Assembly (NCBI GenBank): GCA_030167865.1
Contig: JALAGF010006649.1
Coordinates: 1-64,000 of the forward strand
Length of the DNA: 64,000 nucleotides
Source: Craspedostauros australis
Lineage: Eukaryota
Direction of reading: 5' to 3'
The position numbers were made by a program, and so were the translations under genes. Position 1 is the stretch's first letter, and every line of letters begins with the position of its first letter. Positions 544 through 42,956 of this stretch are shown here, one piece after another. The notes below the pieces were generated by a model. The model searched no databases and was not told the origin of the DNA. It saw nothing but the letters and a program-made list of their open reading frames with translations.

Positions 544-1072
544 GGACGCAAGATCGTCTGCATTTACCTGCTTGCCGTCCCAACGGACAGGCCAATGGAG
601 GGGAAGGCAGACGAGAAAGCGCATGAGAGAGAAGCACTCTCCGCTGGGCACTCCATGCTGGGCGCTGAACCGTCGGAAAGCGACGATGGCAGGCCTCATT
701 CGATTTGACACGAAGAAAAGCGACGAAGGAGGAGAAAACTTCGCCACTCGCGCTCGTACTCGTACTAACACCGGTACGAGCTCCACGGGTGAGAACAGAA
801 AGGAGGCGAAGGAAAAGAGATTCAGAATCCATTCTCGCCACCCTCCATTCTCATAATCACAGATGCAGACAGAAACAACCAGAATCGCAATCACACAGCA
901 GCACCAAACACTACAATACCGCACATCATCAACATCATCATCATCAACAGCAGCAGGAACAGCACTGGAGTAACAACACACACTGCTCCTCAAACAGATA
1001 CTCACTCTGTCGGAGAAAGAACTCAAACCATCGCAAATACTACTGCAAAGACCATCCCCAAAGACCATCACA

Positions 1073-2893
1073 ATGACAGGACACTCCAAGAGCACATTAC
1101 CACCCTCCCTCACGGCGACAGAAGCAACCGCCATGTCGGCTGTGACCACCACGGATGCACCTAATGCACCTAATGCAACCAACGACAACAATGAGGGAGG
1201 CGTCAACCCGTACTCGATGATGCACAGGACGTTGCAGAGCAAGGAGGCCAACTACGTCACGCACATCCTCCCCAACGACGTCCTTCTCGGACGTGGAACT
1301 GGCCCCAACGACCACCCCGGCAACGTCACCTTCCGCAACCTCATCAAGGACCAGTTCAACAACTACAAGACAGCCTGCATCCGAGGCGAGAAGACCAAGA
1401 TGGCCAAGAGGGTCGTCACCTACATCCGTAACCAGAACGGGCGCTTCCTGCGTCGTCTGGATGCCCACGAGATGCCAGCCGCCTTGGCAGATCCCCAGCG
1501 CGATCACCACCTGGTCGAGGATGCGGAGGTGTACCTGGAGATCAAGGATGATCGGCTGCTGGTCCAGAAGACGAAGCAGGCCTTCCGGCACTTGATTCGC
1601 CAGGCAGGACAATCCACCTCGCAATCCCAGTCGCCATCCACATCCCAGGGTGCAGGTACAGGCCAGGATCAAGGGCAGGGCCACTTCGCCCCGCTGTCCA
1701 GGAGGAGCAAGGCTCGATCCGCTTCGATGTCCATGCGATCACGGTCTAGATCGAGATCCCCTGACACGGTGTCATCCGGCGAGAGCGGCGTGGCACCAAG
1801 ATCGTACGGCAGGGCCCGACGGCTCTCCGCAGCCGCATCGGCATCGACGTCGGGTTCTGTCTCCGCCTCTGTGTCCACCAGCCACAGCCGAGCGCAGCTC
1901 GATGGTGATGGCGCTGCCGGCTTGGTGGGCCACACTGGGACCAACATGGACGTGGAGATGAATGCGGGCATGGGCGTAGGTATGGGCATGGGCATGGGAG
2001 CCAACGGCCATGCCCAGGCAGGCGCTGGGGCAGCAATGGGCGAATCAGGTGCGCCACCAGTGAGCATGATCTCCATTCAAAAGTCCGCCCTGGCCCCTAC
2101 CTTCAGCACGTCATCGCTGGACTCGTCGGTCGGCACCAACTCGGTGACGCATCGTCATGCCACTGGTGCTGCTGCCGGTGTCGGTGCCCCCAACGCCATG
2201 CTTGGGGCAGAAGCTGACATCGATGCAAGGCTCGCAGCGCTCAGGGTGTCCGGTCTGCCCGGCTTGTCAGCTGCGGCAGCAGCAGCAGCAGCATCCAGAC
2301 CATCTCAACTGTCCTCGCTCGCCCTCCAGCATCAGAGGCAGCAACAGCTGCAGCTCCAGCTGCGACAACAGCAACAACAGCAACAGCAACAGCGAGACTC
2401 GCAGCTACTCAAGCTGATGGCAGTCAACGATGCCCAGCTGCGATCTCGATTGGCCAAGGCCCAGCTTCTGGACGCTCTATCTACCCCAGGTGTGTCCGCT
2501 GGCGGTATTGCCAACGCTGCTGTTGGAAATGGCACTGGCAATCCATCCGCCCTTGCCCAGCTGGCGTTGGCATCGCAGCCTTCCCAGCTGGCCGCGCCGA
2601 TGTCTGCGCCGAACACGTCGGATGTTCTGGATGCGGCGCTGCGTCTTGCTGCATCTCGCAAGATGGCGGCATTGCAGTCGGCATTGGGAGCAACCGCGGG
2701 CGTAGGTGCCGGAGTCGGAGCAGGCGGACTGGGAGTGGGTGCTCCTGTGTCCGCGACGGCGGCGGCGGCTGCATCAGCGGCTCTGGCAGCCAGATCAGGA
2801 GGAGTTGTTCGTCCAGGCATGGGAGATCGTCACAGCTTGCTGCTGGAACTCCTGGCTGCGGAGCAGACGATGCGGCAGCCGGCCTTTCGTTAG
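1073..2893 (+). CDS. DUF6824-domain protein (paralog A), 606 aa, with S/A/G/Q-rich disordered tail
   Basis: Long ORF with strong C/G-ending codon bias. Motif NDVLLGRG..DHPGN..FR.LI...Y......EK...A..VV..I...NGRFL...K.KQAFRH is typical of diatom DUF6824. PolyQ tract near 2340-2392. Confidence 0.88.
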   Translation: MTGHSKSTLPPSLTATEATAMSAVTTTDAPNAPNATNDNNEGGVNPYSMMHRTLQSKEANYVTHILPNDVLLGRGTGPNDHPGNVTFRNLIKDQFNNYKTACIRGEKTKMAKRVVTYIRNQNGRFLRRLDAHEMPAALADPQRDHHLVEDAEVYLEIKDDRLLVQKTKQAFRHLIRQAGQSTSQSQSPSTSQGAGTGQDQGQGHFAPLSRRSKARSASMSMRSRSRSRSPDTVSSGESGVAPRSYGRARRLSAAASASTSGSVSASVSTSHSRAQLDGDGAAGLVGHTGTNMDVEMNAGMGVGMGMGMGANGHAQAGAGAAMGESGAPPVSMISIQKSALAPTFSTSSLDSSVGTNSVTHRHATGAAAGVGAPNAMLGAEADIDARLAALRVSGLPGLSAAAAAAAASRPSQLSSLALQHQRQQQLQLQLRQQQQQQQQQRDSQLLKLMAVNDAQLRSRLAKAQLLDALSTPGVSAGGIANAAVGNGTGNPSALAQLALASQPSQLAAPMSAPNTSDVLDAALRLAASRKMAALQSALGATAGVGAGVGAGGLGVGAPVSATAAAAASAALAARSGGVVRPGMGDRHSLLLELLAAEQTMRQPAFR

Positions 2894-3618
2894 AGCAGAA
2901 TGACGTTCCGCCACGTGTGCGGCAGAGCGTACGCAAGACCAATCGGCCCGAACCTTGGCGAGTCCATCGCGCTGATCTGGGCAACACCAATAGCAACCAT
3001 CATAGTTCACTTCCTCGATTGCATCCATCTGTCCTCTTCAATGTTAGTCAGTAACGGAACAATAGCTCTACTCGTACATGCCAAACGCAGACTCTATTCC
3101 ATCATGTTTACAGTTCTGCATGACAGCTGCGAGTATGATAGACTCTCTGATATTGTCGGGGTGATGCCAGCTCGGTCCGGGTGCATCGAGTGTTCTGGAG
3201 ACAACTAAGCCTTGTGTGGAACTGCGTGGAACGGAAATGGACAGGTCCGGGACAAAAATGTTGGATTGAGAAGTGACGGGAATCAATCGGTCGTTACTCA
3301 ATGTCACTGTATTGGTCTGTCCTCTTTGCGGAAGATGGCTTCGCGTCAACCGCCAAACGTGATCAAACAGAATCGGCGACACAGTTATGTTTTGGTATCC
3401 TTGCATGAAGGATTGGCCTCGGGAAGCGCGGTAAAGACCATATATTGGTCGTTTTTTGATGGGACTCCATTGGTACTCCCATTAGTCATAGTATAGCTTA
3501 TTCACAATCTAGAAGGTACTCCCATAGACAATTCATCGACGTAGTGTGAACATGGTATTACGGTTGGTCACTAGTTTGTTATGTTACTTGTTCGTGCTGC
3601 ATGGGATTCGCTCCAGTC

Positions 3619-5567
3619 TTACTCAGTGTCTGTGGTGTCGCCCCCCTTGGTGTTGGGGTCCGCCGATGGCGGGTTGACCTTCTCGATCTTGGGGGTCACC
3701 AACGGCATGTAGAACTCCTCCTGGTCATCGCCGTCTGACTCGCAGTCAATCTTAATCAACTCAGCGACACGAATCTTGCGAATGACTGTGGCGCAACGCT
3801 GTTTGGTTTCGCTGGAGAGAACAGCGGAAGGCACCACGACGGGGTCAGGAACAGCAGCGCGACGAGCACGTCTGCGAGCAGCAGCGCGGCGAGAAGCACG
3901 AGCAGACGTGTCCATCGAACCAACCATCAAACGAGATGGTTGACGAGCATACTGCACAGTGCAAAGCAAAAACGCAAAGATGTGTGAGTGAACAAGTGGG
4001 AGTTGTGAAGAACAGAAGACGAAACCGGTATCGAAAATGCTTACCTTTGCAGCGTGTCTGGATCCGGTAGCTCGGCGGCCACGAGCAATCGTCATGCGAA
4101 CAGGAGGTGGACGGGAAAACGTGCGTTCGTCATCGGATGAACTGTAGTCATCCTCGCCCATGTCATCACGAGGGTTCGGGTTAATTGTGCTATGCCGCTC
4201 TGTTCGCCGGTAACGCGCCAAGTTGGTGGCGCAATGGGTGACCGGGCTCGCGCTGTAGACAGGCACCATGCGGACGATCAGCAGGGGCGCATCAGTTTGC
4301 ACATCGCTCTCCCGATCATTGATGCCAACAGAAGGATTGATAAAATCAATCCCATGCATGGCTTGGTCGGAGGTCATTTCAAACCGGTCACTGACTTGGA
4401 TCGGCAGAAATTCCTTGTGCACGCGGACAGGCTTCGGGTGCCCACGACACATGTTGCGAACTGCCAACGCGTATGATTCGCTGCGTTCGCGTTGCCCACG
4501 GAAAGAACGGATCTTGAGGTGCGGAGGAACCGTTTCGTTCAAGCGATCAAGCAGCTCCTTGTCGGTTGCGGCGGATGACGCGAGTTCTTGGTTCTGATCG
4601 ATTTGAACCTCCAACACGCGCCCATGCTCCTTGATGAGCACGTTGACATCGCCGTAGCATGTCCCGCCTGGGAGCTCAAACGTGATTTCGAACACCTCCC
4701 CACGACCGCCTGGGGAGTACGCGTGGCGCACAGCGGGTAAGAAAATTTCCGTGTTCTTGTTCATCCACGCTTCAATTGCACGCGCACGACTGGGACCCTC
4801 TTGCAAGGGTGTCCCGGTCACAGTGTTGTTCACCAGCATGCCACGACTAGCAGCAAAGCCAGGAGGAACAGCAGGAGGAGAAGCCACGTGCGGTGGAAGG
4901 GCAGGAACAGACGAGGGCTCGCGGAGAGCAGCAGTCATCGTGTCCATGCAGTCGTAGGCAGGTCTTGCGGTTGGTGGCTGATGGGTGGGGACAGGCGATG
5001 CGATGTGTGGCGTGACTGGTGCAGTGGTGGGACGGGCTGTTGTCGGCATCTCAGTTGGGTTGGTGGGTGCCGGGCTGTACGCCATACGGGAGAACGCATT
5101 CATCGTTTCCGTTGCTTCTTCAGGCTTCTGCGCTGAGATCTTCTTAATCGCCTCGGTGAATTTTTCTTTGTACGTTGAAGCGTTTGCAACAAGATCAGAA
5201 ACGTTGGGAGAGAATTTCGTGTCCATGCGCACTGAGGAACGTGTTAGGACTTGTTGGTGGAAATTGATCCCGCGGCAATTGACGATTCTCAAACAGCAAT
5301 TCACAGTCACGTACCGGCTTTGGTTGCCTTCTTTGCACGTTTGCGCTTCACAGACTCTCGCAGCCTGCGAAGGTTGCGCGGAAAGTTGCGCTTAGACAAG
5401 AACGACAAATTGCTGTTGCTGTTCCAAACAGCTCTTGCCGGCATGGTCATCGGAATCTCTCCGCTTTCGATCTTCGCCCTGAGTTCGCCAATCTGGGGAA
5501 ACAGTTCTTCGTTCCACGCGGCTCCATCCGCTGCGTTCAGCTGTGGCGGAGAAGCCTTCCTCGGCAT
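3619..5567 (-). CDS. Transposon partner protein; predicted exons 5567-5315, 5231-4045, 3951-3619; N-terminal basic helical domain, central HSP20/alpha-crystallin-like segment, R/D/E-rich tail
   Basis: ORF 5307..5840 (from MPRKASP at 5567) joins ORF 3619..5310 via an 83-nt intron GTACGT...CTAAC...CAG (5314-5232) that keeps the frame. A second, in-frame 93-nt intron GTAAGC...TGCAG (4044-3952) removes an out-of-character stretch. Lies inside the TIRs, head-to-head with the transposase. Confidence 0.75.
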
Positions 5568-6562
5568 GTTGTAGTGGGACTTACTCGCGTATGGTTGATG
5601 GGCAATCGTCACGACGGTCGTATCAACGTATTTTATGAGAGAACGATCGTACATGCATTCGAAGGCATCGCGCATAGCTCGTCTCGAACAGGTGACGAAC
5701 ACGTGCTTTGTGCTGTTCAGTGTCCGTGTTGCAACGTGCCATTGTCCGATCTGAAAACCGCAACGCTTGACATGGTAAGCGGAGAGCTCTACTCTGCCCA
5801 AATAGTATTCAACGCATGCGTTTTGCTTTTCCGTTCCCACAATCGAGATGCATTGCGCTAACTATATTATAATGAATGTATAAATTGAATAAACATATGT
5901 GTTTCCTAGAAGCATGTACGATTATCCCTCCTAGTATAAAAGCATATCAACCGTTGATCTAGACTCAACGTGCTAAACACATGGATCTTCTGTCCGATGC
6001 GACACACAATGGGAGGAAGCACATGCAACTACCCTGACGTGGTGACTCTTCGCCACGTGCTTCTTGAGACGCGACATGCGGAGTTCGTTGGTGGCGAGTC
6101 GTCCAGACAATGATGCGAGGCTCACGTGCATCTCACCATGTGACTCTAATTGCATTGCTTTGACATAGACACCGACACGACATGACCTGCGACAAGCACA
6201 GGACAGGACCGGCGTCGACACCGGAAGAGCACCAGAAGAGCACCAAAAATTCACAGAATTACCGCGGATTTGTCACGGCGACATGTGCCCGAATCTGCGT
6301 CATACTACGACGTCGAATGTAGTTGTACTTGTACAGACGAAATAGTCCATAAATTACAATTTGGTTGGAGCTAAAGAGGCATACTCTCCATAGCATTCAG
6401 AAAAAGTAGTTGATAATGATTGAAAACAGCATTCTGAAATGTAATTGACGTGAGAGTTTTGCATTGTGTTGTCTCAATAAGAATCACGTACGATACTGCG
6501 ACATTTTCCTGTATGTAATAGTGTCGCATGGGACGTGTCGAAAGTACAGAAATAGACACAAG

Positions 6563-6652
6563 ATCGACCATCCATCGACCATCCATCGACCATCCATCGA
6601 CCATCCATCGACCATCCATCGACCATCCATCGACCATCCATCGACCATCCAT
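6563..6652. repeat. Tandem array, 11-bp unit ATCGACCATCC, ~8 perfect copies, between the two transposon genes
   Basis: Read directly. Confidence 0.97.
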
Positions 6653-7334
6653 GGACGCGACATGGACGCGACGCGAGCACGACTTGCACGAGACCTCATC
6701 ACCATGTGGTACGACAACAATGAGGTGCGCGGTCGGCGGTTGCACATGCACAACTACAGTTCCATGATTGTTCGTACTGTGCACAAGTCATTGCCGGACT
6801 CCCCAGATAGAGCATCGGACAACGTGCGCAAAGATGAGACAGCACTCAGGGAGGACAATCGTCTCACTGCATCGTTTTCTTGCGCTTCCCATCGTCCGGG
6901 TCGCAATGACGGACAAAGAGCACGGCACACGCGTCCCCCACGAAGTCATGGATGCAATCTGATCATTTCACTTCATTCGGCAACGTAGGAACTCTTTTAA
7001 TTTTTCGTCCGTTGAATTCTGTCCTCCTCGGTGCACAACGAAGAACAATTGAGGAGGCATTGCAGGACAATGGAACACTCTTCTCGCCTTGTCCGCTGTT
7101 TGCGCCGCGGAATGCTGTCTTATCCGCTCCTCAGCAACAAAGGAGGGAACAATTGCTGTACCTGATGAACATGCGGAGTTGCGCAAGAAAAGGTGTTTCC
7201 TCATTGCCAAGTTGCAGTTCATTTACGCACTGTCCCTACCCATGTCACCGGTTACTTGTCACAAGTCATCGTCTTCCCTTCATTTTGATACTCCTGAAGG
7301 AACAAAGAGCTCATAATTCGCGACAGAAAAAAGA

Positions 7335-8354
7335 ATGCTTCTACCAAGCGGAACTTTCGCCGCTGTGGGGTTTGGGCTGATTGGGTCTCGCCCAAGAGGC
7401 ATTCTCGCGAACGATCTATCCATGGAGTCGCTGCGACAGTTCGCATCCGTGTTCGGAACGCATCCTGACATCATACACATCTTGTGGAACGAGCTCGTAC
7501 ATGCGCGAGCTCTGCCACTCACGGCGAAACCGAAACATCTCCTGTGGACGTGCGCGTTTCTCCGTCTGTACGTGTCTGAGACGGCTTTGGCTGTCATGTG
7601 CAAGTGTTCTGCCAAAACACTTCGTAAATGGATGTGGCTAATGATGGCAGCCGTTGAAACCGTTAAGGATCGCATTGTAAGTACTAATAATTTCGCACAC
7701 CCGAACTACGACACAAAATTCGGTTCACTCCATTCACTCACACAGAGTTCTCTTTTTTGGTACCGTTCTCATTGACAGATTGTCTGGAACCGTCGTTTCG
7801 TTGGCGCATGTCAAAATGCCAAAGCTCTTGTAACGGTTGATGGGACGGACATGCGAATCACCGAACCGAAACCGTTTGACAGGAAGTGGTACTCGTTCAA
7901 GTTTCGCGCTTCTGGTGTGCGCTACGAGTTGGCTGTTGCGATTTCCACTGGTGAGATTGTTTGGGCGAATGGGCCTTTCCCGTGTGGGCTGTTGAACGAT
8001 CTTTCGATCTTCCGTCTGGGACTGAAACCAAGATTGGCGCAGCACGAAGTCGTCGTTGCGGATGCCGGATACCGTGGCGACCCTTGCGTGTTCCCGCCAA
8101 CTTTTCGTGCAGATGGTATCATGCGGTGCCGCCACGAAACAGTCAACAGGCGAATCAAGCACTGGCAATGCATGCACCTGAAGTGGCGGCACCACGTGGA
8201 CAAGCATCGCCTTGCATTCAACGCGGTTGCCATCCTCACCCAAATTGAACTGAGCAACGGCTTCCCCTCGTTTGACGTTGTTGTCGCCATGCAAGAAGCA
8301 CGCGAACGTGCCATCGCCCGAGCAGATGCACAACACACAAACACTACTAATTAG
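7335..8354 (+). CDS. Harbinger/IS5-type DDE transposase (DDE_Tnp_4-like), exons 7335-7676 and 7779-8354, ~305 aa
   Basis: Phase-0 intron GTAAGT...GACAG (7677-7778) joins two ORFs. N-terminal HTH-like part (KHLLWTCAFLRLY...KTLRKW). Catalytic motifs VTVDGTD, WYSFKF, NGPFPCG..ND, VADAGYRG, RHETVNRRIK. No internal stops. Confidence 0.9.
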
Positions 8355-10808
8355 GCCGTCCCACGTAGCAGTAACAAATAGCCAGAATTTAACCGGCATA
8401 CAATTATAATCGTAGATGTCCTCCCTTGTCTGTTGTAGTGAGTTCGTGTTGGGTGTCCTGGTTTGAAAAAGGCAAGCACAGCATGGCGCTGACTGGTTCA
8501 TCGTGTAAGTGCTCTGCTTTGCTGTGGGGAACACTATTTGTCAAAAATGCATCTCGGACCCACTGATAGTGCACTGTGGAGAACGGGTAAGGACGTTCGT
8601 TCCCATGGGGCGACATGCTTCCTTGATCAAAAGAGGATGGACTAGGCAACCAGACACTGTTGCTTGCGCGAAACAATCCGAGTGTGTCCTAATGAAACGA
8701 ACGAAAACAGCAGCGAAGCATCTGGACTGTGCAATCACACGCACGTTCAGCGGAGGGGTGGGAGGATGTTCACAGCAACAGCCGACGATGAGAGCGACAC
8801 GAGCAGGGAAGCGACACGAGCAGGGTTCATCACGCAATGACGCGTGCCTATCAGGACAGGAAAGGGAGGACATGATGCTGCCTACCCCCCTGCGAACGAA
8901 CATGCTCACTTTCGTCGGGTGTGGAGAGTGACGAGTGAAGAACCGAAGTACACTGGGCAAGAGTATGATGAGACGATGCATGTTTGTTGGAGTGCTGCGN
9001 NNNNNNNNNNNNNNNNNNNNNNNNNNNNNNNNNNNNNNNNNNNNNNNNNNNNNNNNNNNNNNNNNNNNNNNNNNNNNNNNNNNNNNNNNNNNNNNNNNNN
9101 NGAAGCAAGGACCCTCTTGAAAAGCAAGGGGCGATTGAGCCGAAGGGCTGTCACGGCGGAAAGGAGGCAATGTGACGTCGCGTGTCTGGGAATGGGGATG
9201 CCCTTGGAGCAGACACGAGGGGATGGAAGGAGTGCAAAGTGGACGTCATTGGCACGTTCACACAGTGTTGGACATCGCCAGGCACGCACATCAATAAGCG
9301 CAACATCACGCCGACACGGGAAAGGCGTGCTCTAGTAGTCGCATGAGTCGATGATCCGAACGAACAAAGCACGGCACAACACGCTTCAAGCGTGAATAAA
9401 GTACAAATCGACACATGTGGTGTCTTTACCGCGCTTCCCTCGTGTCACAGCACACATTCCTCCCCAACACCGCATCGATCAAAACGAGGTCGTCATCGAA
9501 TGCACCAAAATTCCATCGCAAGCCAGGCGATGCAGAAGCCCTGGAGAGGATCGACCGCGTACTATGACCAGGCATGTTGAACTGCAAGTACACACAGTTC
9601 CGTCGGTTGCTCTTGGTGCACGACCCTTCGACCGCTCCCATCATCGCCACCGTCATGCTATCGCCGTCGCCGTCGCCGCCGTCGTTCTTGTTGTTGTGAT
9701 GGTAGAGATCGCACAGAAACGGACAATGTGACAGTCCTAGTACTCGCATGTAAAATAGATGTGAACTCTACTTGTCTGTGCATGATGTTCTGTACGACCG
9801 TGCATGCCCCATTGAAACTGATTGTTTGTTGGGAAGAATTGCACACCTTCGAATTGGATTGTACAAAACCTTGGTGTATGGCTCTATATGTACTATTGCA
9901 TGTGGTACACGAAGATCATTTCTTTCTATTACATGCATTCACATTCTATGGAGTTGTGCAAGGTACTTCATGGTGACACCTACATAGTTGTTCAACGATG
10001 ACGCTCATTCTCATAAACCTTGTGATGGTGTCTGGAATTGGTCGTATACCGTACAAGTGCACAAGTCTGTCAATGTTCGATGACCCTGTCGTCCTCGATC
10101 TTAACAATCTTGACGTTCGGCAGATTCGAGAATATCCGATGCTGCTCCTTTGGGCATTGGCACTGGCCAAAGTTACCAACTTTCCACCCTGCCAAGTCTT
10201 CGGTCAACACCGACACCATCATCTGGCATCATCGATATCAGAACAGCTACCAGTATCAAGCACCAGCTTGATGTGGCACATCCATGAGTCTCCGACGCAA
10301 CCCATCGATTTTGCCTGAACGAGAATGTGCGGCCGAGTACTCGAACACGCCCAAGTGCAGCATACGATGGACCTTGACTCCGTCTCGCAAAGAGGGATCT
10401 CGTCCACGCGTATGAACATGATGGGGCGATTGCATCAGCTTGTGGCCTTGACGGTGTTGATGAGCAATAGAGTAGAGTACTCGTAGTTGTCGTCAGGAAG
10501 CGAGCCATTCATTGTTGCGAGCCTTCTGCATTGATCGCCTTCGCAACGATGGAAGTGAAGCTCTTCAGCGCCTCAACTGAACATCGATGCGCCGTCATCT
10601 GTAGATGTATCGTAGGTGTATCATGGATACCATCGTATTGTTCTCCTGCTGGTTCTAGTTGCGTTGTTCCTGCATTCGCAGCTACGGCCTCGTTCCTGTG
10701 ATTGTGCAATAGGCTTGAACTACATTGCACACCCATTCGTGTGATTGTGCTCGTGCTTGTTCTTGTTCTGGTCTGTTGGTCGGATGGCCTATTGGCCGAG
10801 TCCAGAAC

Positions 10809-12992
10809 TCACGTGCCGGATGATGTACGAGTGTGGCTCTTCTTTGGTTTGAGGAGCACTTCCATGACTTCAGATGCGGCGGTCATCTTCCTCTTCCTTT
10901 CGATGTTCTTTGCTAGCCGATCGAGACCTGCAGCTACTCGCCCTGCAGCCAGCACCTTGGTGGTCGTAGTTTGGGTCGTCTGCTTCTCCTCTCCTAGGAA
11001 CTGGCGCCATGTTTCGCCATCCTGTTGGGTTTGTCTCCTGTGCCCGGGTGGCTTGCGGCTCGCCATCAGCGCAGGACCGTTTCCAATCAAAGGCCCCATA
11101 AAAGCTTCTCCTCCTTGTATCTTATCAGCAATGCTCTTTCCTGGGCGTTTCGGAGCAGACAGAAATGATGGTCGCAGGGGTGGGTGACAGCTCTGGTTGT
11201 TGGCGCTGTAACGTTGAAGCGTCGCCGCTGCCAACGAGTTCTGCAGGTGATTGTGCGGAGCGAGCTGCGCGGATAAACCAGAGACCAAGGTTGTTTCGCG
11301 CCATCCTGTCCGTCTTGGGACACGATCACCAAGGGACTGTATCATCCTTGTGGCTCGCTTTTGTTGCTTCGGGTTTGCAAGTACTGGGTTGTTAATACCT
11401 GTGCATTCTCTGAGAGTCTTCGCGCAAAAGAGATCCATCATGTCTTGTGGTGCCGTGAGCGTCTTGGATGAGTTGTTGCCGATCAGACGCAATTTTTCGT
11501 CCATGCCAGCCCCATGATGAGCAGCCGGTTTCGCTGGCTCGGACAAAGTCCCGCCCCCAAGCAACCAGGCGTGAGGACCGGCCAGCTGCATTTGACGTGT
11601 GCGAGTGCGAAGTCTGTTGACATCCTGCGCAGCCTGGACAAGTCCGGCAACATGAACAGCTTCTCTGTCGAAGGCTCGCACGTGGTGCTGGGGTTCGTCT
11701 TGGGCGGCCTTTTCGACCTCGTCGATGGCACACAACTTCGATCCTGTCGAAAAACCGCCAACCCAAGGGAGATTGGAGTCGATTGGTTGACTCACCGTGC
11801 CTCCTGCAACTCTCTCTTCGGTGAACATCTGACGGATAGCACGAGTGGGACTTGCTTTTGAAGCAATGCCAACACACTTGGTTGGCGGAACGCCCGGTAG
11901 CAGATCGCGCGCAACGGCTGCCACCACTTGTTGATCGCTGCCACGGCTCCGTCGATCCGCTTGCAGATGACGGATCCCGATTGGGTCATCCACGATGGAT
12001 GCCAGCAAACTTGGGGTAACTTTGGTTGCAGAAAGCGCCATGGTTGCTGCAGGTAGATGGTGCCTGTTGGTCTCCGTCAACGAGGTCAGCGCCAGAATGT
12101 GCGAGTCCAATGGGTGCTTCTTGTTCAGACTGGTGTCACTGGTCGGTCGGAGTTGTTGGAGTTGTTGGAATCCTGGCAATTGCTGAGTCTGGCAGAGACT
12201 GAGGGGCTCATTCTGCAGAATGGTCGCAATCGAGTTGTCACCGCGGATCGGATTGGCGCGAAGATGGCCTTTGCCAGCGCAAGGCACACCAATGGTGCTG
12301 ACCAAGGAAGATGAAGGATGACCACCGCTGTACTGTTGCATGTCCATGGCGTAGATTCCGCATCGAGGCGGAAGTTGCGCATCAAGGCTCGAGACCAAGG
12401 CGGATGGGAGTAGGACAGCATCCACCGTAGTGGGCGAGGGGCGAGTAGCCACCGTGTAGCCATCGGCCGCACTGGCGTGAGCAGGAACGTCTTGCAATTG
12501 GACGGCATCCAGACTGGATCGTGGATGAAGCAGTCGGAACACATGGCGGAATGCTTGCTTGATCTTTTGGATCAACAGGTTGTCATCTCGCACGACGATG
12601 AACGCTTCCTGGTCGGCCGTCGGTGGATGATCCGGTCCGCCCACCTCTTGCTGGTCAAGGGGGCCGGCCTTGCGCAAGAATTCGCCATTCTTCGCGTGCA
12701 CAGCGGCGATCACCAGCTGAGCGGCGCGCCGCTTGCCTTCCTTGCTTTTGGCATCGTGGTAGGCCTTGTGGTGCTGCTGGATGAGCGCTCTGAAGGCAGT
12801 GTTGCCTGGCAAGTCCATCGGACCCGTGCCTCGCCCAAGGAGTACATCGTGGATTCCTATTTCTTGGCGATACGTGCGGGAATGGAGCTCGCTTTCCTCC
12901 CCAGCCTGGCTCGTTGATCTCTTTGCATCTGAGTCCTCGGGCGGTCCGGAGGTGTCGGCCAAGGTCCCGGAGTTGCTGCTGGCAGGGTTCAT
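10809..12992 (-). CDS. DUF6824-domain protein (paralog B), 727 aa
   Basis: HDVLLGRGTGPMDLPGNTAFRALI...NGEFLRK...DDNLLIQKIKQAFRH near the N-terminus. Basic C-terminus (KRKM..KPKK) could be an NLS. Confidence 0.85.
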   Translation of the reverse strand: MNPASSNSGTLADTSGPPEDSDAKRSTSQAGEESELHSRTYRQEIGIHDVLLGRGTGPMDLPGNTAFRALIQQHHKAYHDAKSKEGKRRAAQLVIAAVHAKNGEFLRKAGPLDQQEVGGPDHPPTADQEAFIVVRDDNLLIQKIKQAFRHVFRLLHPRSSLDAVQLQDVPAHASAADGYTVATRPSPTTVDAVLLPSALVSSLDAQLPPRCGIYAMDMQQYSGGHPSSSLVSTIGVPCAGKGHLRANPIRGDNSIATILQNEPLSLCQTQQLPGFQQLQQLRPTSDTSLNKKHPLDSHILALTSLTETNRHHLPAATMALSATKVTPSLLASIVDDPIGIRHLQADRRSRGSDQQVVAAVARDLLPGVPPTKCVGIASKASPTRAIRQMFTEERVAGGTVSQPIDSNLPWVGGFSTGSKLCAIDEVEKAAQDEPQHHVRAFDREAVHVAGLVQAAQDVNRLRTRTRQMQLAGPHAWLLGGGTLSEPAKPAAHHGAGMDEKLRLIGNNSSKTLTAPQDMMDLFCAKTLRECTGINNPVLANPKQQKRATRMIQSLGDRVPRRTGWRETTLVSGLSAQLAPHNHLQNSLAAATLQRYSANNQSCHPPLRPSFLSAPKRPGKSIADKIQGGEAFMGPLIGNGPALMASRKPPGHRRQTQQDGETWRQFLGEEKQTTQTTTTKVLAAGRVAAGLDRLAKNIERKRKMTAASEVMEVLLKPKKSHTRTSSGT

Positions 12993-15900
12993 CCTGGAGG
13001 GCAGCGAGGGAGGGGGTCGGTGAGGTCGAAGGAGTGGGCGAGCAGAATACGATCTGTTGTGGTCGGTGGGATTCTATTGCGCAGAGGATGAGAATACTGA
13101 GAAATCGTCACTCTGGGTAAGTGTGAAGGCAAAGGACGGTCAAGGACACACGAACAAGAGGGTTTGGAAACGGAGAAGCAAAGACAAACGACAAATTCAT
13201 CGTTTGGCATCGTGAGGCATGAATGGCGAGGTACAGAGAGGTGTGGCACCAGACAGAGAGGAAGAGAAGGTTCGTCAAGGTCAATCGCCTGTTGCGTCGT
13301 TGTATCATGGGCTACACCCGCACTGTGTGATGCGATGCGATGCGACGCTGCAGCAGGCGACATCGGTTGAATGTGAAATCATTTGCACAGGACAGTTCGG
13401 CACCTCCCTGCGAGTATGACTCTTGTCCATCAGAGGATGCAAGATGGCAAAGGCGTTGTCGTTGCCGTTGTCAGGGATGAATTTGCAACCTCAAGATCGG
13501 GCAGGAGTCGCGAAGGCAGCGGGATCGATGCGCCAATAACTCCACTGGGCCAACGCATGATCCACCCCATGCCGATGCAGCTCAGTTCGTCACGAGTTGG
13601 CTCAGATCGGTGCGCCTCCCACCTTGCTGCACGCACGAAGGCCTCGGCCTGCGATTCGCTTCAGCATGGTGTGGAAGAGGGTGCTTCGCAGCCTCATACA
13701 CAGCCAAGCTAAAAGAAACGAGGTTTCCTGACATTGCCATGGTCATGTCAGGACAACGAAGCACAGCCATTGCCATTTGCTCGCCTTCGCAAAGGAGCGA
13801 TTCTCGGTGGCGGGAGAAGGTGATCCTTCAGGAAAAGACGCGTTTGCGTCCCGATGCTCGAAACATGCCGTTGACTTACTTGTACAATGCCTACGTGTAT
13901 GGTATGTGTATGTGTATGGTATGTGAATGGTATGTGAATGTGTATGGTGTGGTATTCTTGAAGATTCCAGATTCTCGCGGATGGATCGTAGATTGCGAAT
14001 CGGTGTTGTTTGAATCGTCAAATGTAATTTGTGGTCTTCAAGCCGTCGCCTTCCCCACAGCACAAATTGATGCGCAATGTATGCCACCCGTACGAGTATA
14101 CGAAGATGGAGCAAAGGAAGTCCAAGTATTATATGTTCCGGACTCAGCAGAGATGGATGGTGTCTGGTACGAGTATGCTCCTCGTTTGCTACGTTCTGTT
14201 GTGAGTTGAAGCGTACTGATGATTGTGTCCAAGAGGTATCACGAGGTGCTGTAATGTGCGACCCGGTCCAGTATGTGGAGTAGTCGTACGGTATGCCTGT
14301 ATCTGCCGATACCTCGCAATGTCTCCGCAAACAACGTGGGATCGCTGGATTCGTTGTTGACGTCAAAAGGGTGTCGGGAGTGCACAAGTCCAGGCAGGAA
14401 GCCTGCTCGTTCGCTCTACGAGTATTTTGCACCGAAACAGTCCCGACACGGTGGCTGCGCGAGCTGCTGTTCGAGCTGTTCTGTGGGCATTCGTGTTGGT
14501 ATTGGTGCTTGTGTGCCTCTCTGCCTGCATCTCTCTACTCTCTGATCGCTTTCTCCCTTCCTCTCCCATTGATTTCCGCTCTTGTTCTTTCTCTCGCCGC
14601 AGCCGTCGCGGTACGCCTATGCAGTGTTGCGTTTTGCGTAACTGGGACGACAAGCATGGCGCCAGCAGGGTCAGTACAATAATAGGAGCACAACACAGGT
14701 AGGAGAAGGCACCAACATCCCATTCGGTACCTCGTAGTCCGCCCTGTTCCGGCTGTTGGGCGTGTGGGGAACGATTCGTGTTTGGCCATCTGTTGTGTGG
14801 AGTACAAACTATCAGTAGCTCGTGGAGCGCATACGTGTCGAGTAGAGGAATCGCCTGACACCCAACGCGCACCTGAAACGAACACAGATGGTCCCAGTTT
14901 TCGATGTGTCAATAGCACACACGCCAGGCACTGTGGGACAACAAGGGAATGAAACCGAGACAGCCCTGATTGGAAGCGGCTCTCGCGAGGGTGGACAAGA
15001 CCACCGCAAGCACAATAAATGAACGAACACAACATCATCTGCCAAGAATTTTCGGCCAAAGGAGAATAACGCTGCGACGCAAAAGAAGCCGATCAAGAAA
15101 AGCAGAACAGAGCATCAACCTGCACTGACAAAAGCTTGTCGCTTGTGATCTTGGACGTGAAGGGTTCGCGACGAAGCGTCGCAGCAGTTCTACTCCTCGA
15201 AACGAAGAGCACCGAAGGTGCAACAGCACGTATTCGTACTGGATACGAGAACGGTACTAGCTCGAGTATAGTCGAGTCAACCAACAGAGTTGGAGGGAAC
15301 GCGTGCCGTGTCGTCTGTGTCACCGGACATGTCACTTTCTCATCGTGGGAATGGGAGCATGACCTCGGCGTGTACCAATACACCACACACGAACTGGCAG
15401 AGATGTGGACAGATGTGGACAGACGTGAAGAGAGACAGAGACAGAGTGAGAGTGCAGCTTTGTCATGTTCGTACTCTTGGACAAGGTAGCGAAAGAGTCA
15501 CTCTCAGGCGAGCCGTGATCGTTCCCTGTTGACACGACACACACATGCTCGTAGATCGCAGGTGTGTGTACCCTTAGACTGTTACGAGTGCCGAAGAACA
15601 AACAAAGTGCGTGTATCGCGTAGCCTGCGATCTATGTATGGAACTTCTGAACGTTTCCTAGTGCATGCGAAGATGTGCGCATGTCTGTGAGGAGCCGCAG
15701 CTCGTTGGTATTCCGCGCTTCTCGCACAGATGCTGCTGCTGTACGAAGAGACACATCGAAAACGAGGACATTGCAGGAGTGGACTAGAATGTATGGAGCA
15801 CACCTTGTGGAGACGATCAAGTCCATCATGAGGTCGCTTCGCGTCAAACAAGTTCCCAAGAACAACATGAAACACAACATACATGCCATCGCTCCTCTCG

Positions 15901-18874: not shown

Positions 18875-19512
18875 TCAATACTTCATCGCCAAGGCAGACT
18901 GAAGGAGCTCATTCATCGCACCTGGGTCCACGCGTGAGTGGTTGTCTTTGCAAAGCTGGAGTCGCTGCCTGTTGGTGTCAGTGGACCAGGTTCGCACGTA
19001 GGGTCTCTGACAGGTTTCTTCCCAGAATTGCTTGACTTTCTTGTTGGCCTCCATGTTGAGCTGCTCCATCACTGTCAGCTGTTTGCCAGTGGCATCTTGG
19101 TGCCCCTTCACCCATTCCCACTTCAGCGAAGCCAGGATCTGCCATTGGAGCCTCCTGATTTCCTTGAGAACATCCCAGTCCTTTTGGCTTGGTAGCAAGT
19201 TGTCCTCCTGTGCTTGCAAGAGCGCCTGCTTGCCGTCCAGGGCAATGGTGATCACACTGTCCTTGTGAATGCCTGGAATCTCCAAGACGATTGCAAGGGA
19301 CGCCCATATCCCAGCAAACTCACTTTCATAGGCACTGTGAACTTCTGGGGCCCCAGAACGAACGTTTGGCAGTACATGTGCTGCTGGGATTCGACGTCAA
19401 ACGCAATCGATACTGATGTCCCTTGCCTGTCTTTGGACGACCCGTCGCTCACCATCAACAGTCTGTTGCGGTTTGCTGCCCTCATCGCCTTGTGGAGAAC
19501 TATGTCCCCCAC
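18875..19512 (-). pseudogene. RNase H domain of the LINE, frameshifted
   Basis: MVSDGSSKD (first catalytic Asp), ALDGKQAL, DWDVLKEI, WEWVKGHQD, EQLNMEAN motifs. Confidence 0.85.
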
Positions 19513-34270: not shown

Positions 34271-36244
34271 TCAAAGCCCTCGGCGCATCATGCCATTACT
34301 ATCCTGCAGCCCACCAGATCCGTCGTCGGTGTTCTTCCTGGATGCCATGAGATCGGCCAATGTTTGAAGTTGATTGATTGACAGCTGGTGGTACGCAGAG
34401 CGAAGGGATTGTATCGACTCCAAGGTGCCAGTCCTGGGGGGTTCTACTCTGCCTCCCATTGCATCAAACACGTCAGATGATGTGCTGCTGTCTAGCGCAT
34501 TGCTGTTCCCGTTGTTTGTGCTGCTGATGCTGTTGTTGGATAATGTACCGATGTTTAGAGGTTGGGTATCCTGCGATGGCAACTGATCTCGCAACCGAAA
34601 AAGCTGCTGTCCGTGCAGAGATGTGCCGGGATGATACTGGGAATCCAAGAGCGCGGGAGAAGGCTGGCGATTGGAGTCCATAGAAAGGGACGTGAAGTTT
34701 GTCGATACTGACGAAAGTGCTGATCCTGCTGTTGGTGCTGTTGCGAATAATGGATTTTGCGGCTGTACAGACGAAGTCGTGAAGGGGAGCATATCTGCCG
34801 GTTTTTCAGTGCATGTTGGAATCGGCAAGATCATCGGAGTTGGCGCTCCTAATGCCGACCCTGTCGACCCTGTCGACCCTGTCGACCCTGCTGACCCTGC
34901 TGACCCTACTGCTGCCGTTGCTGAAGATGGCGATGCTGCTGATGATGACGATGATAGCGTTGCTGTTGCTAGCGACGTTTGCGCAGCTTGACTTGACGCT
35001 ATGTTTTCTTGTGCAGACAGTCCCGAGAGCGGATGGGTCACGGTGTCAGTAGTTCGCCCACCTTGCCCGAACATCATCGTTGGAGCGTTTGAAGTCGTCG
35101 AAAGCAATTGCGAGTTGCTGAACGGGAAATCATGTTGAGTGGCAAGAAACGATAGCCTGGCATCGTTGGCATCAAGCAAAGAGTCGGGCCGATGCTTCTG
35201 ATCTGCCTGCAGTTGGCCTGGTGGGGGTGGCATCGCGAATGGTTGGTCTCGCGTTTGCCTCGCATTCTCTGCTTGCCGATTCCAAGAAAAGCTGGGGAAG
35301 GAGACATCGTGGTTGATACTGTCGCGCATGCTGGGAGGCGTGCGGTTGAATATAGCAGGAACCGACCCAAGAAGGTTCTTGAGGTGGTCGTTGCCTGGCT
35401 TCTGTTCAGGAAGAGGAACGTTGTGCGACGTGGCTTGGCCTTGATCTTGATCTTGATGGGGTTGGCCGTGACGGAGCAGGACGAGAGCTTTGGGATGCAT
35501 ATCAGATGCTGGCTCCGATGAAGCTTCCACGAGTGGCGTCTCGGCCGATCGTGCCGACGAGGCTGATTTGGACGAGGGAGACAGTGCGTCGAGCGCCCCT
35601 GACGTGTTAACGTCGACGGGCTGGCGACCGTCCCATCCCCCTGCACCTTTTCGTGTGCTGCCATCGGCGTCACTTCCTAATTTGACCCTGCTTGGTGTGC
35701 CAGGCGAATCCCCTTGTGCCATGTTCGATCGGATCATGTAGCGGAAGGACTGCTTCATCTTTTGCACCAGAACTCTGTCATCGTTGACCTCAAGGAATAC
35801 ATCGCGTCCCTGGTGATGCTGAAAGACACCAGATGGGATCTCGTTTCGCTCCAAGCGCCGGAGGAACCTTCCATTCCTCGACTTGATAATATCGATGAGC
35901 TGACGGCACAGGCGCTTCTTGTTGCCCCTGACGGTCGATTCGTCGTAGGTTTTGAAGTTGCTACGGATCATGTTCCTCAGGTTGACGTTGCCATGGTGGT
36001 CCATGATGACAGTGCCACGGCCAAAGAGCACATCCTGAGGTCCCACATCGACAATGTATCCGGAATGGGGAAAGCTCGTCGTGGTATCGACGATGGCATC
36101 GCTTCGATCCGCTGCGCCAAGAGCGTCGATGACACTGTTCGTTCCATCAGCAACGACTCCCAAGTGAGCGGCGGAAGACATTGCTTTCCCCTGCGCTCGT
36201 CCTGTCGACTTCGACATCTTGCGGCGGCCGCCACCACCTTGCAT
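34271..36244 (-). CDS. DUF6824-domain protein (paralog C), 657 aa, S/T/P/Q-rich tail
   Basis: QDVLFGRG...DHHGNVNLRNMI...NGRFLRR...DDRVLVQKMKQSFRY. A 9-bp coding repeat at ~34855-34907 encodes (GSA/GST)n. Confidence 0.87.
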   Translation of the reverse strand: MQGGGGRRKMSKSTGRAQGKAMSSAAHLGVVADGTNSVIDALGAADRSDAIVDTTTSFPHSGYIVDVGPQDVLFGRGTVIMDHHGNVNLRNMIRSNFKTYDESTVRGNKKRLCRQLIDIIKSRNGRFLRRLERNEIPSGVFQHHQGRDVFLEVNDDRVLVQKMKQSFRYMIRSNMAQGDSPGTPSRVKLGSDADGSTRKGAGGWDGRQPVDVNTSGALDALSPSSKSASSARSAETPLVEASSEPASDMHPKALVLLRHGQPHQDQDQGQATSHNVPLPEQKPGNDHLKNLLGSVPAIFNRTPPSMRDSINHDVSFPSFSWNRQAENARQTRDQPFAMPPPPGQLQADQKHRPDSLLDANDARLSFLATQHDFPFSNSQLLSTTSNAPTMMFGQGGRTTDTVTHPLSGLSAQENIASSQAAQTSLATATLSSSSSAASPSSATAAVGSAGSAGSTGSTGSTGSALGAPTPMILPIPTCTEKPADMLPFTTSSVQPQNPLFATAPTAGSALSSVSTNFTSLSMDSNRQPSPALLDSQYHPGTSLHGQQLFRLRDQLPSQDTQPLNIGTLSNNSISSTNNGNSNALDSSTSSDVFDAMGGRVEPPRTGTLESIQSLRSAYHQLSINQLQTLADLMASRKNTDDGSGGLQDSNGMMRRGL

Positions 36245-39200
36245 TTTGTCAGCTGTTGCTACTTACGGTCCCTGGCGTTGGTGTCGACGCTTTCGTTTTC
36301 GTTGGCCTAGGTCCTGGTCTCCTCTACGCCTGCTGGCTATGTCGCTGGTGCTCACGATTGGAGTGATGATCGCCTCAACCACAGTTCTGCCGTCGCTCAG
36401 GTGGGTGGCGCCGTGCTCTCCTGCGATCCGCCTCTCCTCGCTTCGTCTTGATCTCGCCTCTCTCACGTGCTGAAGATGAGCCAGCTGCAACATTCAATCC
36501 TTCGCTTGCAATGGCCACTCAACCCTGACAACTCTGCGGGTTGGACGATGAACAAGAGAGCGTGTTAGTGTTCGTGTGTTTGCGTGTGTGTGATCTCCGG
36601 CCAAAGATGTGACGCAGAACCGCTTGGAGTGGCGACAACGGACAACAGGCGCTGCGAAAAAGAGATCGCTTTATCTTTGCGTTTGTAATTTATGATGCGA
36701 TGGTTGTGTGTTTGCTTGGTTGCTGGCTTGCTTGTTTGTTTGTCTTCTCGCTTTGTTTGTTGGTCCTTTTGCTGTGTATTGTCCATCGCAAATGTCGGCA
36801 ATGCGGTGCCATCTGTTTGGCGCTCGTAGTCCAAACTGTTGAGTATCCGCGTGCCTGCATCGATTGCGCAATCCCCTTGTGTTGGTACGGATGCAAGAAC
36901 CGTGGAGTCAGCATCTCAACCAAGCAATGGTTACATGAAGATCCACGCACACACAGAGCATTTGGTATGTATGGTATGTACCGGACACACACCAGCCACG
37001 AGCCACGAGACACTGGTTTCTGCAGAGCAAGTACGAGCCAGGAACGACGACGCTGTCATGGGGACTCGACTGGTTAGGGCCCACCCACAAATCGAGATGT
37101 TTGGATTGACAGATTTTCGTCAGGGGCGCGTTTCGCTTGAGACTTTGCTCCCTGGGTTTGAACTTGTCCGATTCTTCCTGTTCTTCGCAGCACCGATCAA
37201 AGACACCTCACCATGATGGGACCACCACGTTTGCTCGGCGAAATTGTAATCTGTTCTCTTTCAATATGCCCGGTCTCTCTATTAAATGGAGAGCTCGTAA
37301 GCACTTCGTTTAGTGTCCGTGAGAACTTCTCCGCCACGACATTATTGTTCCAGGTACATACGGCGAACAGGTAAAGGTACAAACGTGCCTCCGTGATTTC
37401 TTGGTATCGTGTCGCTGTGATAGAGCACGAGCTGGAGGACATCAGCTCCGAGCAACAACAGTCCCACGACAGGCGCATCATCGAATCCTTGGGATGACGA
37501 TGTTGGGTGACAGGATCTCCAAACAGGACGTCCCCAATCTTCACCATTGGCTGGTATGTGCAAATTGTATCATGCCTTGCTGCGCCATGTCATGTCATGA
37601 CATCAAATACTGGTATGCATTGCACTTGGATGCGGTGTTGCCGTGGTGCCGTGGTGCCGCGGAGCGGTGGAACCACGGGGAACGTGCCGTGTGAGGCAAT
37701 CGCGGGGCGCCTCGTGGGCTCGAGCCGCTCCGGGACACTCTCCTCTGGAGCATATCGATTCCAACTCCTCATCGTGATTGCGCACATACCACCGATGCTT
37801 GTATAATACGATTGCCCACACAAGGTGCACCTTACGTTTGTGCTCGCATCGATGCTCCAGGTCCCAAATGAAGCAGAGTCGAGTATTCCATTGCAAAATA
37901 GAGGACCTGCGTATTCGTGGTCAAGAAGCGACGCTCGACTCCGCATGGAAACGAGGGTACATGGTGGCAGCAATGTCGAGGCTGACGCAAACGGCGTTTG
38001 TCCATGTCGTGCTGAGTTCTTGGGTGATATGCAAATGAATCACGACAACAAAGGATGAGTTGCTGAAACGCTTCGGTTCTACCACTGCTGCGTATTCATC
38101 GCAATGGTCCATCCAAGTACCACACAACGCGACTCATTGTCTCCTCTGGCTCGACGCGTACATTCTCGCCGTGAGATAACACGACGGGAGCATCTTGTTT
38201 CGCTTAGTTGTTCCTCTGGTGGCTAAGAGAGCACCAGCGCTGGTATTAGTATCAACTATTCCGCCAGGTGTTCCCGGCTTTTTGCTCAATGTACCACATA
38301 ACAGAACGAAAGCGGTGCGAACGGTGTGGTCGGTACTATGCAGAGTACTCGATACTCGTAGTTGGTACACGGAGGAACAAGCGAAGATCCCCTTGACCAT
38401 CTTTGTGCGCAGAATACGTATTTCTGTCATGGGGTCTGCCTGTTCCTGTCTTGTCAGAAGTGTTCGTCGTTGCATGATTGGTGACGAACATCGCAACGCA
38501 CCACGATGGTCTTCTCCGAAACGTCGCCATGATCAGATCAGGCATTGGGTAGTGGAGCTTGCTGCAAAAAGGTGCCTGGTGGATCATTGGCCGAGAGGAG
38601 GCAACCAACAGACCCCTTGTTAGAGACTTCCTGAAACCATACTCGTACTTCTCGATTGACGACTGTGTTCGAGTACTGGCGTGGCGTACTTTGGGTGTGG
38701 AAGAATGACGAGGTGTTGTATCTGTCGCTGACATCCAATAGCATGTTACAGATCGTTCCGTGCCCTTTTGTATTATAGTACATCTTCGAGTACTTTGCAC
38801 GGAATCCACCACGACAGCGACGCGTCGATCTTGACGCCAATACCTCCCCGGCAGTTCTGCGTTGTGATGGGATCAGCGGAGCCCCTTTCGGCGTTGTGCA
38901 TGTGGATGGCTCCAGCGCAGCAATTCCGCGCAGAACATCCCCAAGTGCCGCGTGGGGACAAGGTTGTGGATGGGGAGTTCTCTGGGCCGTTCCACAAAGA
39001 GCGGCGACGGCCTCCCGGACGACAACGCACCAAACCAATCCACGTCGCTGATCCAGTGCCCAATGCCACCCTCGAGAGCACCAGTTGCGGTGCTGATACG
39101 AAGTCGCGTGCGACTCACAACGAACGAAATGATGCACCGCTTATGGCAGACACGAGCGCTCCGCATACGCGTACTCGAGCAAGAGAGATCACAGAACAGA

Positions 39201-41673: not shown

Positions 41674-42855
41674 TCAAGGCAAGGCCCGCTGTCTGATTAT
41701 CCTCTCCACCGCGATGAGCTTCAATTCGAGCATTCTCCTGTTGAAAAGCGAGGTGTCGGTGAGTCCGAGATCCGGCATTGGCACTGACGTGACAGGCGGA
41801 GTGAATAGCACGGTGCTGGGTGCCGGCTGTTGCTGTGCTTGGGTTGGAAGCCCGCTGAGGAGCAATGCCTGCGCATCAACGATCTGCTGGTACTGCGACA
41901 TGACGCTTGGCTTGCGGAGGGGGAGAGCCAGCGAGAGGTGAAGATTGCGAATCGTCGCATCTCTCACGCTGTCATTTGGAGTGGCATGGTGTACATTCGT
42001 CATCGGCGTGACGGGCATGATCGTGGGCATATTGACGGAGCCTGGTGTTGCAATCCGTGGGCGATTGATCTTCTTGGGTGATACTGCAGAGCTGCAGAGG
42101 AGCTGCACCAGAGAAGGCGGCTGCAAATTGGTTGATCTTCGCTCGTAGGATGCTTCGAGCAGGTTGGTCAGCCCGTGGGGGCTTGCACATGCAGGGAACT
42201 GCGAAGCCAGAGTCTGGGCGTTGAGGTGGGGAGAGCACGTTGTCGATGCCACAGCATCAGGCTGTTGATTCCGTGCTGGTGGGCCCAGAACAGCGCCGCT
42301 GTTGGACAACGTAGGTGGCGAAATGATGTTCGTGGTTGTGGCGCTGGATTTTGGCGGAGGAGTGGCGACGCTACTGAGATCATCGTCGCGTGGTGCTGAT
42401 TGGCTCATTGCGATTGATTTCTTCGCTGTTGCCTTTGCCTTTGCGTTGGGCTGGTGCTGCTGCCGTCTCTTCGTCACCGTGGTGCCATGGAAGGACCGGA
42501 CACGATGGCGGAAGGCTTGCTTGATCTTTTCCATGATCACGGGCGTACTCTCGATGACTTGGTAGATGTCGTCGCTGTTGATATCGCCTTCGACATCAAC
42601 CTCATCGTTGACGGTTGAGATTGCGAGCATTTCCCTCTCGTCGACCTTGCGGAGGAACCTGCCCTTGTTGGATTGAATGATGGCAAGCACCTGTTTTGCG
42701 ATCTTCGCCTTTTCGGAGCGCGCCGATGCGTCCTTGTACTGCGGTGAGAATTGCTTGATGGTCAGCCGGAATGAGATGTTGCCGCAGTGATCGCCAGGCT
42801 TGGATCCTCGTCCCAGCAGCACATCTGATTCCCTGATCTCGCTTGTGTATTTCAT
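41674..42855 (-). CDS. DUF6824-domain protein (paralog D), ~393 aa from the first in-frame ATG
   Basis: MKYTSEIRESDVLLGRG..DHCGNISFR...KGRFLRK...EKIKQAFRH. The listed ORF start at 43257 is TTG, so the ATG at 42855 is preferred. Confidence 0.85.
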   Translation of the reverse strand: MKYTSEIRESDVLLGRGSKPGDHCGNISFRLTIKQFSPQYKDASARSEKAKIAKQVLAIIQSNKGRFLRKVDEREMLAISTVNDEVDVEGDINSDDIYQVIESTPVIMEKIKQAFRHRVRSFHGTTVTKRRQQHQPNAKAKATAKKSIAMSQSAPRDDDLSSVATPPPKSSATTTNIISPPTLSNSGAVLGPPARNQQPDAVASTTCSPHLNAQTLASQFPACASPHGLTNLLEASYERRSTNLQPPSLVQLLCSSAVSPKKINRPRIATPGSVNMPTIMPVTPMTNVHHATPNDSVRDATIRNLHLSLALPLRKPSVMSQYQQIVDAQALLLSGLPTQAQQQPAPSTVLFTPPVTSVPMPDLGLTDTSLFNRRMLELKLIAVERIIRQRALP

Positions 42856-42956
42856 GGTGGTGTTTTGGCTGTGCTCAGTGCCGGCTTTCGTTACCAGAGT
42901 ACTTGCTTTGAGTTTGTTGTGCGGTATACGTGCAGTGTGCGTGCGTGCGTTGGTGT

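Follow-up and report, generated by a model that had tools for sequence, protein, structure and literature searches.

Harbinger3_DR, Ping/Pong, and PIF are canonical examples of PIF/Harbinger transposons with two open reading frames (ORFs). Mobilization of such elements has been found to require both the ORF1 protein and the transposase (PMC2836001), and the second protein is credited with DNA binding, nuclear import, and a recruiting role (PMC9179366). The latter source describes the Myb-like second proteins as "much more divergent" than the transposases, gives 25–50 bp as the usual length of the terminal inverted repeats (TIRs), and a 3-bp target-site duplication as typical. It also offers a precedent for Harbinger-like elements in which the second gene is not fixed: the second ORF of ISL2EU encodes a YqaJ exonuclease, and Spy usually has a single ORF (PMC9179366). 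Against this background, we analyzed a 64-kb stretch of the genome of the diatom Craspedostauros australis (contig JALAGF010006649.1, positions 1 to 64,000; hereafter, the window) and studied an element at positions 3421–9439. The transposase and the TIRs support the placement of the element in the PIF/Harbinger superfamily, and it is bounded by TIRs, contains two genes, and is apparently intact.

In common with the canonical members, the element has a transposase with a DDE_Tnp_4 domain and a D-D-E triad, short TIRs, and two separate genes, the second of which (hereafter, the partner) encodes a basic protein with clusters resembling nuclear localization signals (NLSs). What is new here is a further PIF/Harbinger element that departs from the canonical ones by its short TIR, unclear duplication, and unrecognizable second protein: the perfect TIR spans only 18 bp, no clean 3-bp duplication of the TWA type is seen, and the partner lacks a detectable Myb/SANT/trihelix domain. 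The transposase, at 305 amino acids (aa), is also short. With a probability of about 0.55, we read the locus as a single, apparently undecayed autonomous element in which the partner would be, by analogy, an accessory protein of the ORF1 type with a lineage-specific central domain, and in which the similarity of an ELPG-containing stretch to small heat-shock proteins would be a motif resemblance only.

Ends of the element and the transposase gene

The sequence GGGAAGCGCGGTAAAGAC forms the perfect 18-bp inverted ends of the element and occurs twice in the window, as the left TIR on the plus strand (3421–3438) and, in reverse complement, as the right TIR on the minus strand (9422–9439). Shuffled sequences contained on average 0.06 matches and reached two in 1 of 100 replicates. 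No third copy was found in the window with three mismatches tolerated, and partial matches to the TIR at 22594, 30705, and 49274 were at chance level. The inverted arms reach a length of 35 nt when 80% complementarity is accepted, with the looser left arm extending to position 3455, and both TIRs pass directly into flanking sequence that is not repeated. The left 18-bp TIR is flanked by CTC and the right one by TCG, and the 3-bp duplication typical of Harbinger elements is therefore not clearly present; a 3-bp target-site repeat would require a 1-nt offset of the ends. With a TIR of 17 bp, and only then, a 4-bp direct repeat, CTCG, stands on both flanks (3418–3421 and 9439–9442) and, as read from the sequence, may represent an atypical target-site duplication. 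We saw no host ORF interrupted by the insertion, the frames on the two sides, checked by reading, not being joinable in frame.

Inside the left end, two copies of GTACTCCCAT on the plus strand (3473–3482 and 3516–3525), with a looser copy slightly upstream, are candidate binding sites in the subterminal region. The degenerate form of the pattern matches three times in the window against an expectation of 0.37. No counterpart of GTACTCCCAT was found at the right end, and no k-mers outside the TIRs were common to the two subterminal regions.

The transposase gene lies on the plus strand and consists of two exons. The first (7335–7676; 114 codons) encodes a conserved N-terminal region, and the second (7779–8354; 191 codons at 7779–8351, followed by TAG) encodes the DDE_Tnp_4 catalytic domain; the 102-nt intron between them (7677–7778; GTAAGT..CAG) contains an in-frame stop at 7773–7775, and the length of 305 aa refers to the spliced product. 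Exon 2 matched the Pfam family DDE_Tnp_4 (PF13359) with an E-value of 1e-7 and 32.1 bits, in comparison with a cutoff of 24.8 bits, and DDE_Tnp_1 also matched, below the cutoff of that family. The D-D-E triad is formed by D21, D95, and E120 of exon 2, each of which occupies a column with at least 90% conservation in an alignment of 52 sequences.

Among the protein collections, we found 56 relatives of the transposase at E ≤ 1e-3. The best of them (P0007) is a 325-aa entry of an MMETSP transcriptome labelled "Craspedostau..."; exon 1 is 35% identical to its residues 10–124 and exon 2 is 61% identical, over 179 residues, to its residues 124–302. As this transcriptome-derived protein is colinear with both exons, the splice of the transposase is supported. 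A separate alignment showed the N-terminal region to be conserved among 10 longer relatives, and the length of the transposase is in line with the class of 270–335 aa to which the clade, consisting of diatom and environmental proteins, belongs. The source collections of these relatives yielded no homologue of the partner. Taken together, the domain match, the triad, and the colinear relative suggest an apparently functional transposase of the Harbinger type.

A search of metagenome contigs with the transposase gave two loci. In the first (L001), the matches form two blocks in the same intron-like arrangement, at 44–45% identity, and its contig, with a length of 1132 bp, has no space for a partner gene. 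The second (L002; 12585 bases), a distant DDE_Tnp_4-like match at 27% identity, does not look like a eukaryotic Harbinger element: it has overlapping long frames on both strands and resembles bacterial sequence of high guanine-cytosine (GC) content with an IS5-type element. Viral contigs and prokaryote genome contigs contained no matches to the transposase.

The partner gene and its place in the element

The partner gene is oriented divergently from the transposase gene, on the minus strand, and lies wholly within the TIRs. In our model, exon 1 (5315–5567) starts at the ATG at 5567 and encodes, in 84 codons, a basic module ending in KRKRAKKATK; exon 2 (4045–5231) encodes helices, a linker, a domain of ~190 aa, and a charged tail; and exon 3 (3619–3951; 110 codons at 3951–3622, followed by TAA) encodes the basic cluster RRAAARRRARR and an acidic C-terminal part. 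The coding sequence totals 1770 nt, or 590 codons. The predicted introns (intron 1: 5232–5314, 83 nt, GTACGT..CAG; intron 2: 3952–4044, 93 nt, GTAAGC..CAG) are of the GT..AG type and similar in size to the supported 102-nt intron of the transposase. Without splicing, the frame of exon 1 stops at 5309–5307, two codons past the GTACGT donor; removal of intron 1 brings exon 1 into the long frame, with a GTG codon divided between the two exons. Intron 2 keeps the frame and contains no stops, and its retention would thus likewise leave an open frame. Ahead of the ATG at 5567, a further 98 codons of the exon 1 frame, up to position 5861, are free of stops and contain additional ATGs, the first at 5675, so that the true start may lie upstream, for example at this alternative ATG. 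The three-exon model is nevertheless coherent, with both introns being predictions.

The partner is not a chance ORF, as indicated by the length of its open frame and by its gene-like GC periodicity. The stop-free frame at 3619–5391, which also has 590 codons but differs in composition from the spliced partner protein, is longer than any frame in 500 of 500 shuffles (maximum 250 codons). Within the central domain, the GC content of the three codon positions is 0.62/0.42/0.65, in comparison with 0.60/0.45/0.58 in the transposase and 0.60/0.44/0.73 in a host kinase gene. The intergenic region between the partner and the transposase (5568–7334) has a GC content of 0.48 and shows no codon periodicity. 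This region, which would contain the divergent promoters, also harbors an 11-nt tandem repeat, ATCGACCATCC, in nine registers at 6541–6672, the central registers being 100% identical.

The predicted protein begins with a strongly basic module: exon 1 has an isoelectric point of 11.47 and 18 lysine and arginine residues among 86. Basic clusters resembling NLSs are found in exon 1 (KRKRAKK) and in exon 3 (RRAAARRRARR). Exon 2 begins with two helices, which are followed by a linker at residues 51–145 consisting to 57% of proline, threonine, alanine, and serine, by the central domain of ~190 aa at residues 146–335, which shows coding-like periodicity, and by the charged tail. Pfam families of the Myb/SANT/trihelix type gave no match to exon 1 at E ≤ 1 nor, at E ≤ 10, to the longer frame that includes the upstream codons. 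The YqaJ exonuclease family was likewise without a match in the partner, which sets it apart from the second protein of ISL2EU. A search of the ESM Atlas with exon 1 returned unrelated families only, all with scores below 0.9.

We searched for relatives of the partner in several collections. None of 5913 candidates for exon 2 was confirmed in a word-based search of 5.8 billion clustered proteins, and none of 117 candidates was confirmed when exon 1 was compared with longer proteins. A full HMMER search over 1.84 billion representative proteins gave no relatives at E ≤ 1e-3. Metagenome contigs contained 37 stretches with the pattern and viral contigs five, with none confirmed in either set; exon 3 was compared with Pfam alone. 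No second copy of the partner, the transposase, or the TIR was found in the window. In the protein collections, the balance is thus 56 relatives for the transposase vs. none for the partner, the transcriptome that is the source of the best transposase relative included, and the partner either evolves too fast to be recognized or is specific to the element.

Much of this outline had been proposed in a first-pass annotation of the window, which described a two-gene element of the PIF/Harbinger type, with TIRs around both genes, a stop-free spliced DDE transposase, and a divergent three-exon partner. Our analyses largely bear out that description. The two matches to the 18-bp ends in the window, at the positions given above, enclose both the transposase gene and a second open gene; the transposase has retained its triad, matches DDE_Tnp_4, and has a relative colinear over both exons; and a separate reading of the minus strand gave identical exons for the partner. 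The peptides quoted there are present as well, WNEELF...NFPRNLRRLR in exon 1 and FEITFELPGG...RVLEVQI in exon 2.

Under our preferred reading, the transposase would excise and reinsert the element by cut and paste, and transposition would need both element proteins, as in the characterized Harbinger elements. The partner would be a fast-evolving accessory factor of the ORF1 type: its basic N-terminal module and two NLS-like clusters may bind to the termini of the element or to subterminal DNA, and it may carry the transposase into the nucleus and onto the ends, while the central domain of ~190 aa would be lineage specific. A complex prediction for the transposase (exons 1 and 2) with exon 2 of the partner gave a score of 0.00; made without controls or alignments, the prediction is neutral on binding.

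Several observations weigh against this reading. The element is present as a single copy in the window, and the partner is thus a putative regular part of it; as the partner has no homologue in the collections searched, the role that we assign to it derives solely from its position and from analogy. The partner has no Myb/SANT/trihelix match in Pfam, and its introns are predicted and its expression presumed. A clean 3-bp duplication is absent and the TIR is shorter than the usual 25–50 bp, and the right TIR is located beyond a gap of 102 Ns.

Alternatively, the partner could be a passenger without a role in transposition, whether captured, born de novo, or derived from the host, or an element nearing domestication could have it as its sole functional gene. 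A recent and element-specific acquisition would be expected to produce the contrast in the numbers of relatives. The Myb/SANT signature is also missing, and the related groups ISL2EU and Spy have a different second ORF or none. On the other hand, the partner is long, open, and coding-like with a coherently spliced model, and its placement, entirely between the TIRs and divergent from the transposase, is the usual one for accessory genes in this kind of element. In addition, second proteins are reported to diverge beyond recognition across Harbinger families (PMC9179366), and the missing matches are therefore expected under the accessory reading, too. We consider a passenger unlikely, while still the most serious of the competing explanations.

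Less probable still, and in our judgement improbable, is a chimeric assembly in which another copy or locus contributed the right TIR, or the 319 bp that follow the gap, so that the 6 kb would not constitute a single element. The gap, 102 Ns at 9000–9101 in the right arm, does separate the right TIR from both genes, and the presence of 12 N runs in the window (four of at least 50 Ns, the others of 1–2 Ns) identifies the sequence as a draft scaffold. Speaking against a chimera, both TIRs abut nonrepeated flanks and the 18-mer occurs nowhere else in the 64 kb; the orientation and spacing of the parts are those of one element, and CTCG is common to both flanks.

Thalassiosira pseudonana is a diatom for which DNA transposons of the Harbinger-like kind have been noted (PMC2806351), and in the literature that our searches returned, such elements are little characterized in diatoms. 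The present two-gene copy, apparently intact and with a supported transposase splice, provides a useful reference element and is a candidate active transposon that might serve as a genetic tool in a diatom. The partner also illustrates the speed at which the accessory proteins of Harbinger elements leave sequence space.

The alpha-crystallin resemblance

Harbinger-derived proteins are known from a setting with alpha-crystallin domains (ACDs): in Arabidopsis, HDP1 and HDP2 are found in the IDM complex alongside the ACD proteins IDM2 and IDM3 (PMC5339849). According to the same paper, no binding of HDP1 or HDP2 to IDM2 or IDM3 was seen in yeast two-hybrid or split-luciferase assays. The first-pass annotation had suggested that the partner contains the strand pattern of an ACD and, with reference to the Arabidopsis proteins, that the element may belong to a transposon lineage carrying such a domain. 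The HDP–IDM background that it invoked is in print, although direct binding was not seen there (PMC5339849). A transposon-encoded ACD is not described in the accessible parts of the literature on Harbinger and alpha-crystallin domains, which concerns DNA methylation and demethylation in plants. If true, a transposon equipped with its own ACD-type antisilencing factor would bear on the escape of transposons from silencing; the support for it consists of a short motif.

The segment in question, FEITFELPGG...RVLEVQI, is encoded at 4600–4692 on the minus strand and corresponds to residues 180–210 of partner exon 2. Across these ~30 residues, the partner resembles the alpha-crystallin/HSP20 proteins, the plant IDM2 and IDM3 among them, in having an alternating-hydrophobic strand, ELPG, an acidic residue, and two strands, and VFEITFELPGG..DVNVLIKEHGRVLEVQI recalls the region from beta3 to beta5 of small heat-shock proteins. 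The likeness does not extend to a profile match, an extended alignment, or recognizable ACD relatives. No Pfam family of the HSP20/ACD type appeared in a scan of the whole of partner exon 2 at E ≤ 1 or in one of the 190-aa domain at E ≤ 10, which produced DUF536 as its sole row, with an E-value of 0.13.

We then compared the domain with 12 HSP20 proteins: IbpA and IbpB of Escherichia coli and the products of 10 further genes, five from plasmids and five from phages. The set is narrow, being of the IbpA type from proteobacteria and phages and having AGF in place of LPG, and the two comparisons based on it are therefore weaker tests than the Pfam scan. Using hhalign, 10 columns were aligned with a probability of 0.21%, the program placing VFEITFELPG onto the strand HYRIAIAVAG of the IbpA-type proteins in agreement with the proposed position of the strand. 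With a hidden Markov model built from the 12 proteins, the domain scored −0.2 bits in an unfiltered run and 71 of 1,000 shuffles of the domain scored as high.

Motif counts were based on patterns defined post hoc. The core regular expression h.h.h[DE][LVIM]PG matched twice in the window, nucleotide shuffles giving 0.11 matches on average, although such shuffles represent genuine coding sequence poorly; its second match falls in an unrelated ORF at 18875–19396 on the minus strand, itself without an HSP20 match, which counts against the ACD reading. An extended expression, adding the acidic residue and a strand to the core, matched once in the window vs. a mean of 0.01 in 100 shuffles.

Structure prediction added little. 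AlphaFold (AF2) models from single sequences had a mean predicted local distance difference test (pLDDT) score of 36.0 for partner exon 2 and 31.7 for the 190-aa domain, and with such scores the models are too poor for a meaningful fold search. A low-confidence beta-hairpin, VNVLIKE/RVLEVQI, recurred in both models, as the ACD reading would have it, but was directly followed by a helix. From ELPG to the last candidate strand there are ~140 residues, which exceeds the length of an ACD (~90 residues). In the ESM Atlas, the look-alikes of the domain were bacterial clusters of the FliK, SPAN, and HpaP type, with scores of 0.77–0.83 and none from HSP20, and PDB sequences gave the partner chance matches only, at E-values of 0.6–0.8.

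The ACD reading thus found no support in the comparisons, with no HSP20 match in Pfam, a negligible hhalign probability, and a profile score within the range of shuffles, and the suggestion of a transposon lineage carrying the domain is likewise unsupported, the partner having no relatives where the transposase has 56. The ELPG stretch is a short motif resemblance without statistical support and no ACD is demonstrated. We regard it as highly improbable that the partner represents a novel type of accessory protein for Harbinger elements, rather than a diverged Myb-like ORF1 protein, and that its beta-rich and possibly ACD-like central domain would give chaperone- or chromatin-directed antisilencing and make the element a free-living counterpart of the plant HDP–IDM system. 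The most specific version, in which the partner would be a chromatin or antisilencing factor encoded by the transposon and would join a DNA-binding N terminus to a genuine alpha-crystallin (HSP20-like) domain, can draw on the motif and on the Arabidopsis precedent of Harbinger-derived and ACD proteins in one complex, but given the comparisons above and the lack of direct binding to IDM2 or IDM3 in that system, we hold it to be the least probable explanation of all.

Surroundings of the element

Other genes of the window were surveyed with Pfam. The domain DUF6824, which we take to define a diatom or stramenopile family, was found in 5 of the 16 long window ORFs scanned (E-values from 1.5e-18 to 6.6e-14). 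Along with the best transposase relative (P0007), this family is a sign of a diatom host. These ORFs, at 974–2890 (+), 10812–13073 (−), 34274–36262 (−), 41677–43290 (−), and 49767–50933 (+), form a dispersed cluster of paralogues, and the transposon is inserted between the first two of them.

The ORF at 18875–19396 (−) that shares the core motif with the partner contains LAIVLEIPGIHKDSVITIALDG followed by WEWVKGHQD and is located within an N-rich stretch at 17.8–20.6 kb. It has the look of a retroelement segment of the RNase H type, but Pfam gave no such match at E ≤ 0.01. The ORF at 53760–55463 (+) has the domains BCDHK_Adom3 (E-value 1.7e-36) and HATPase_c and is a host gene of the type of the mitochondrial branched-chain ketoacid and pyruvate dehydrogenase kinases.

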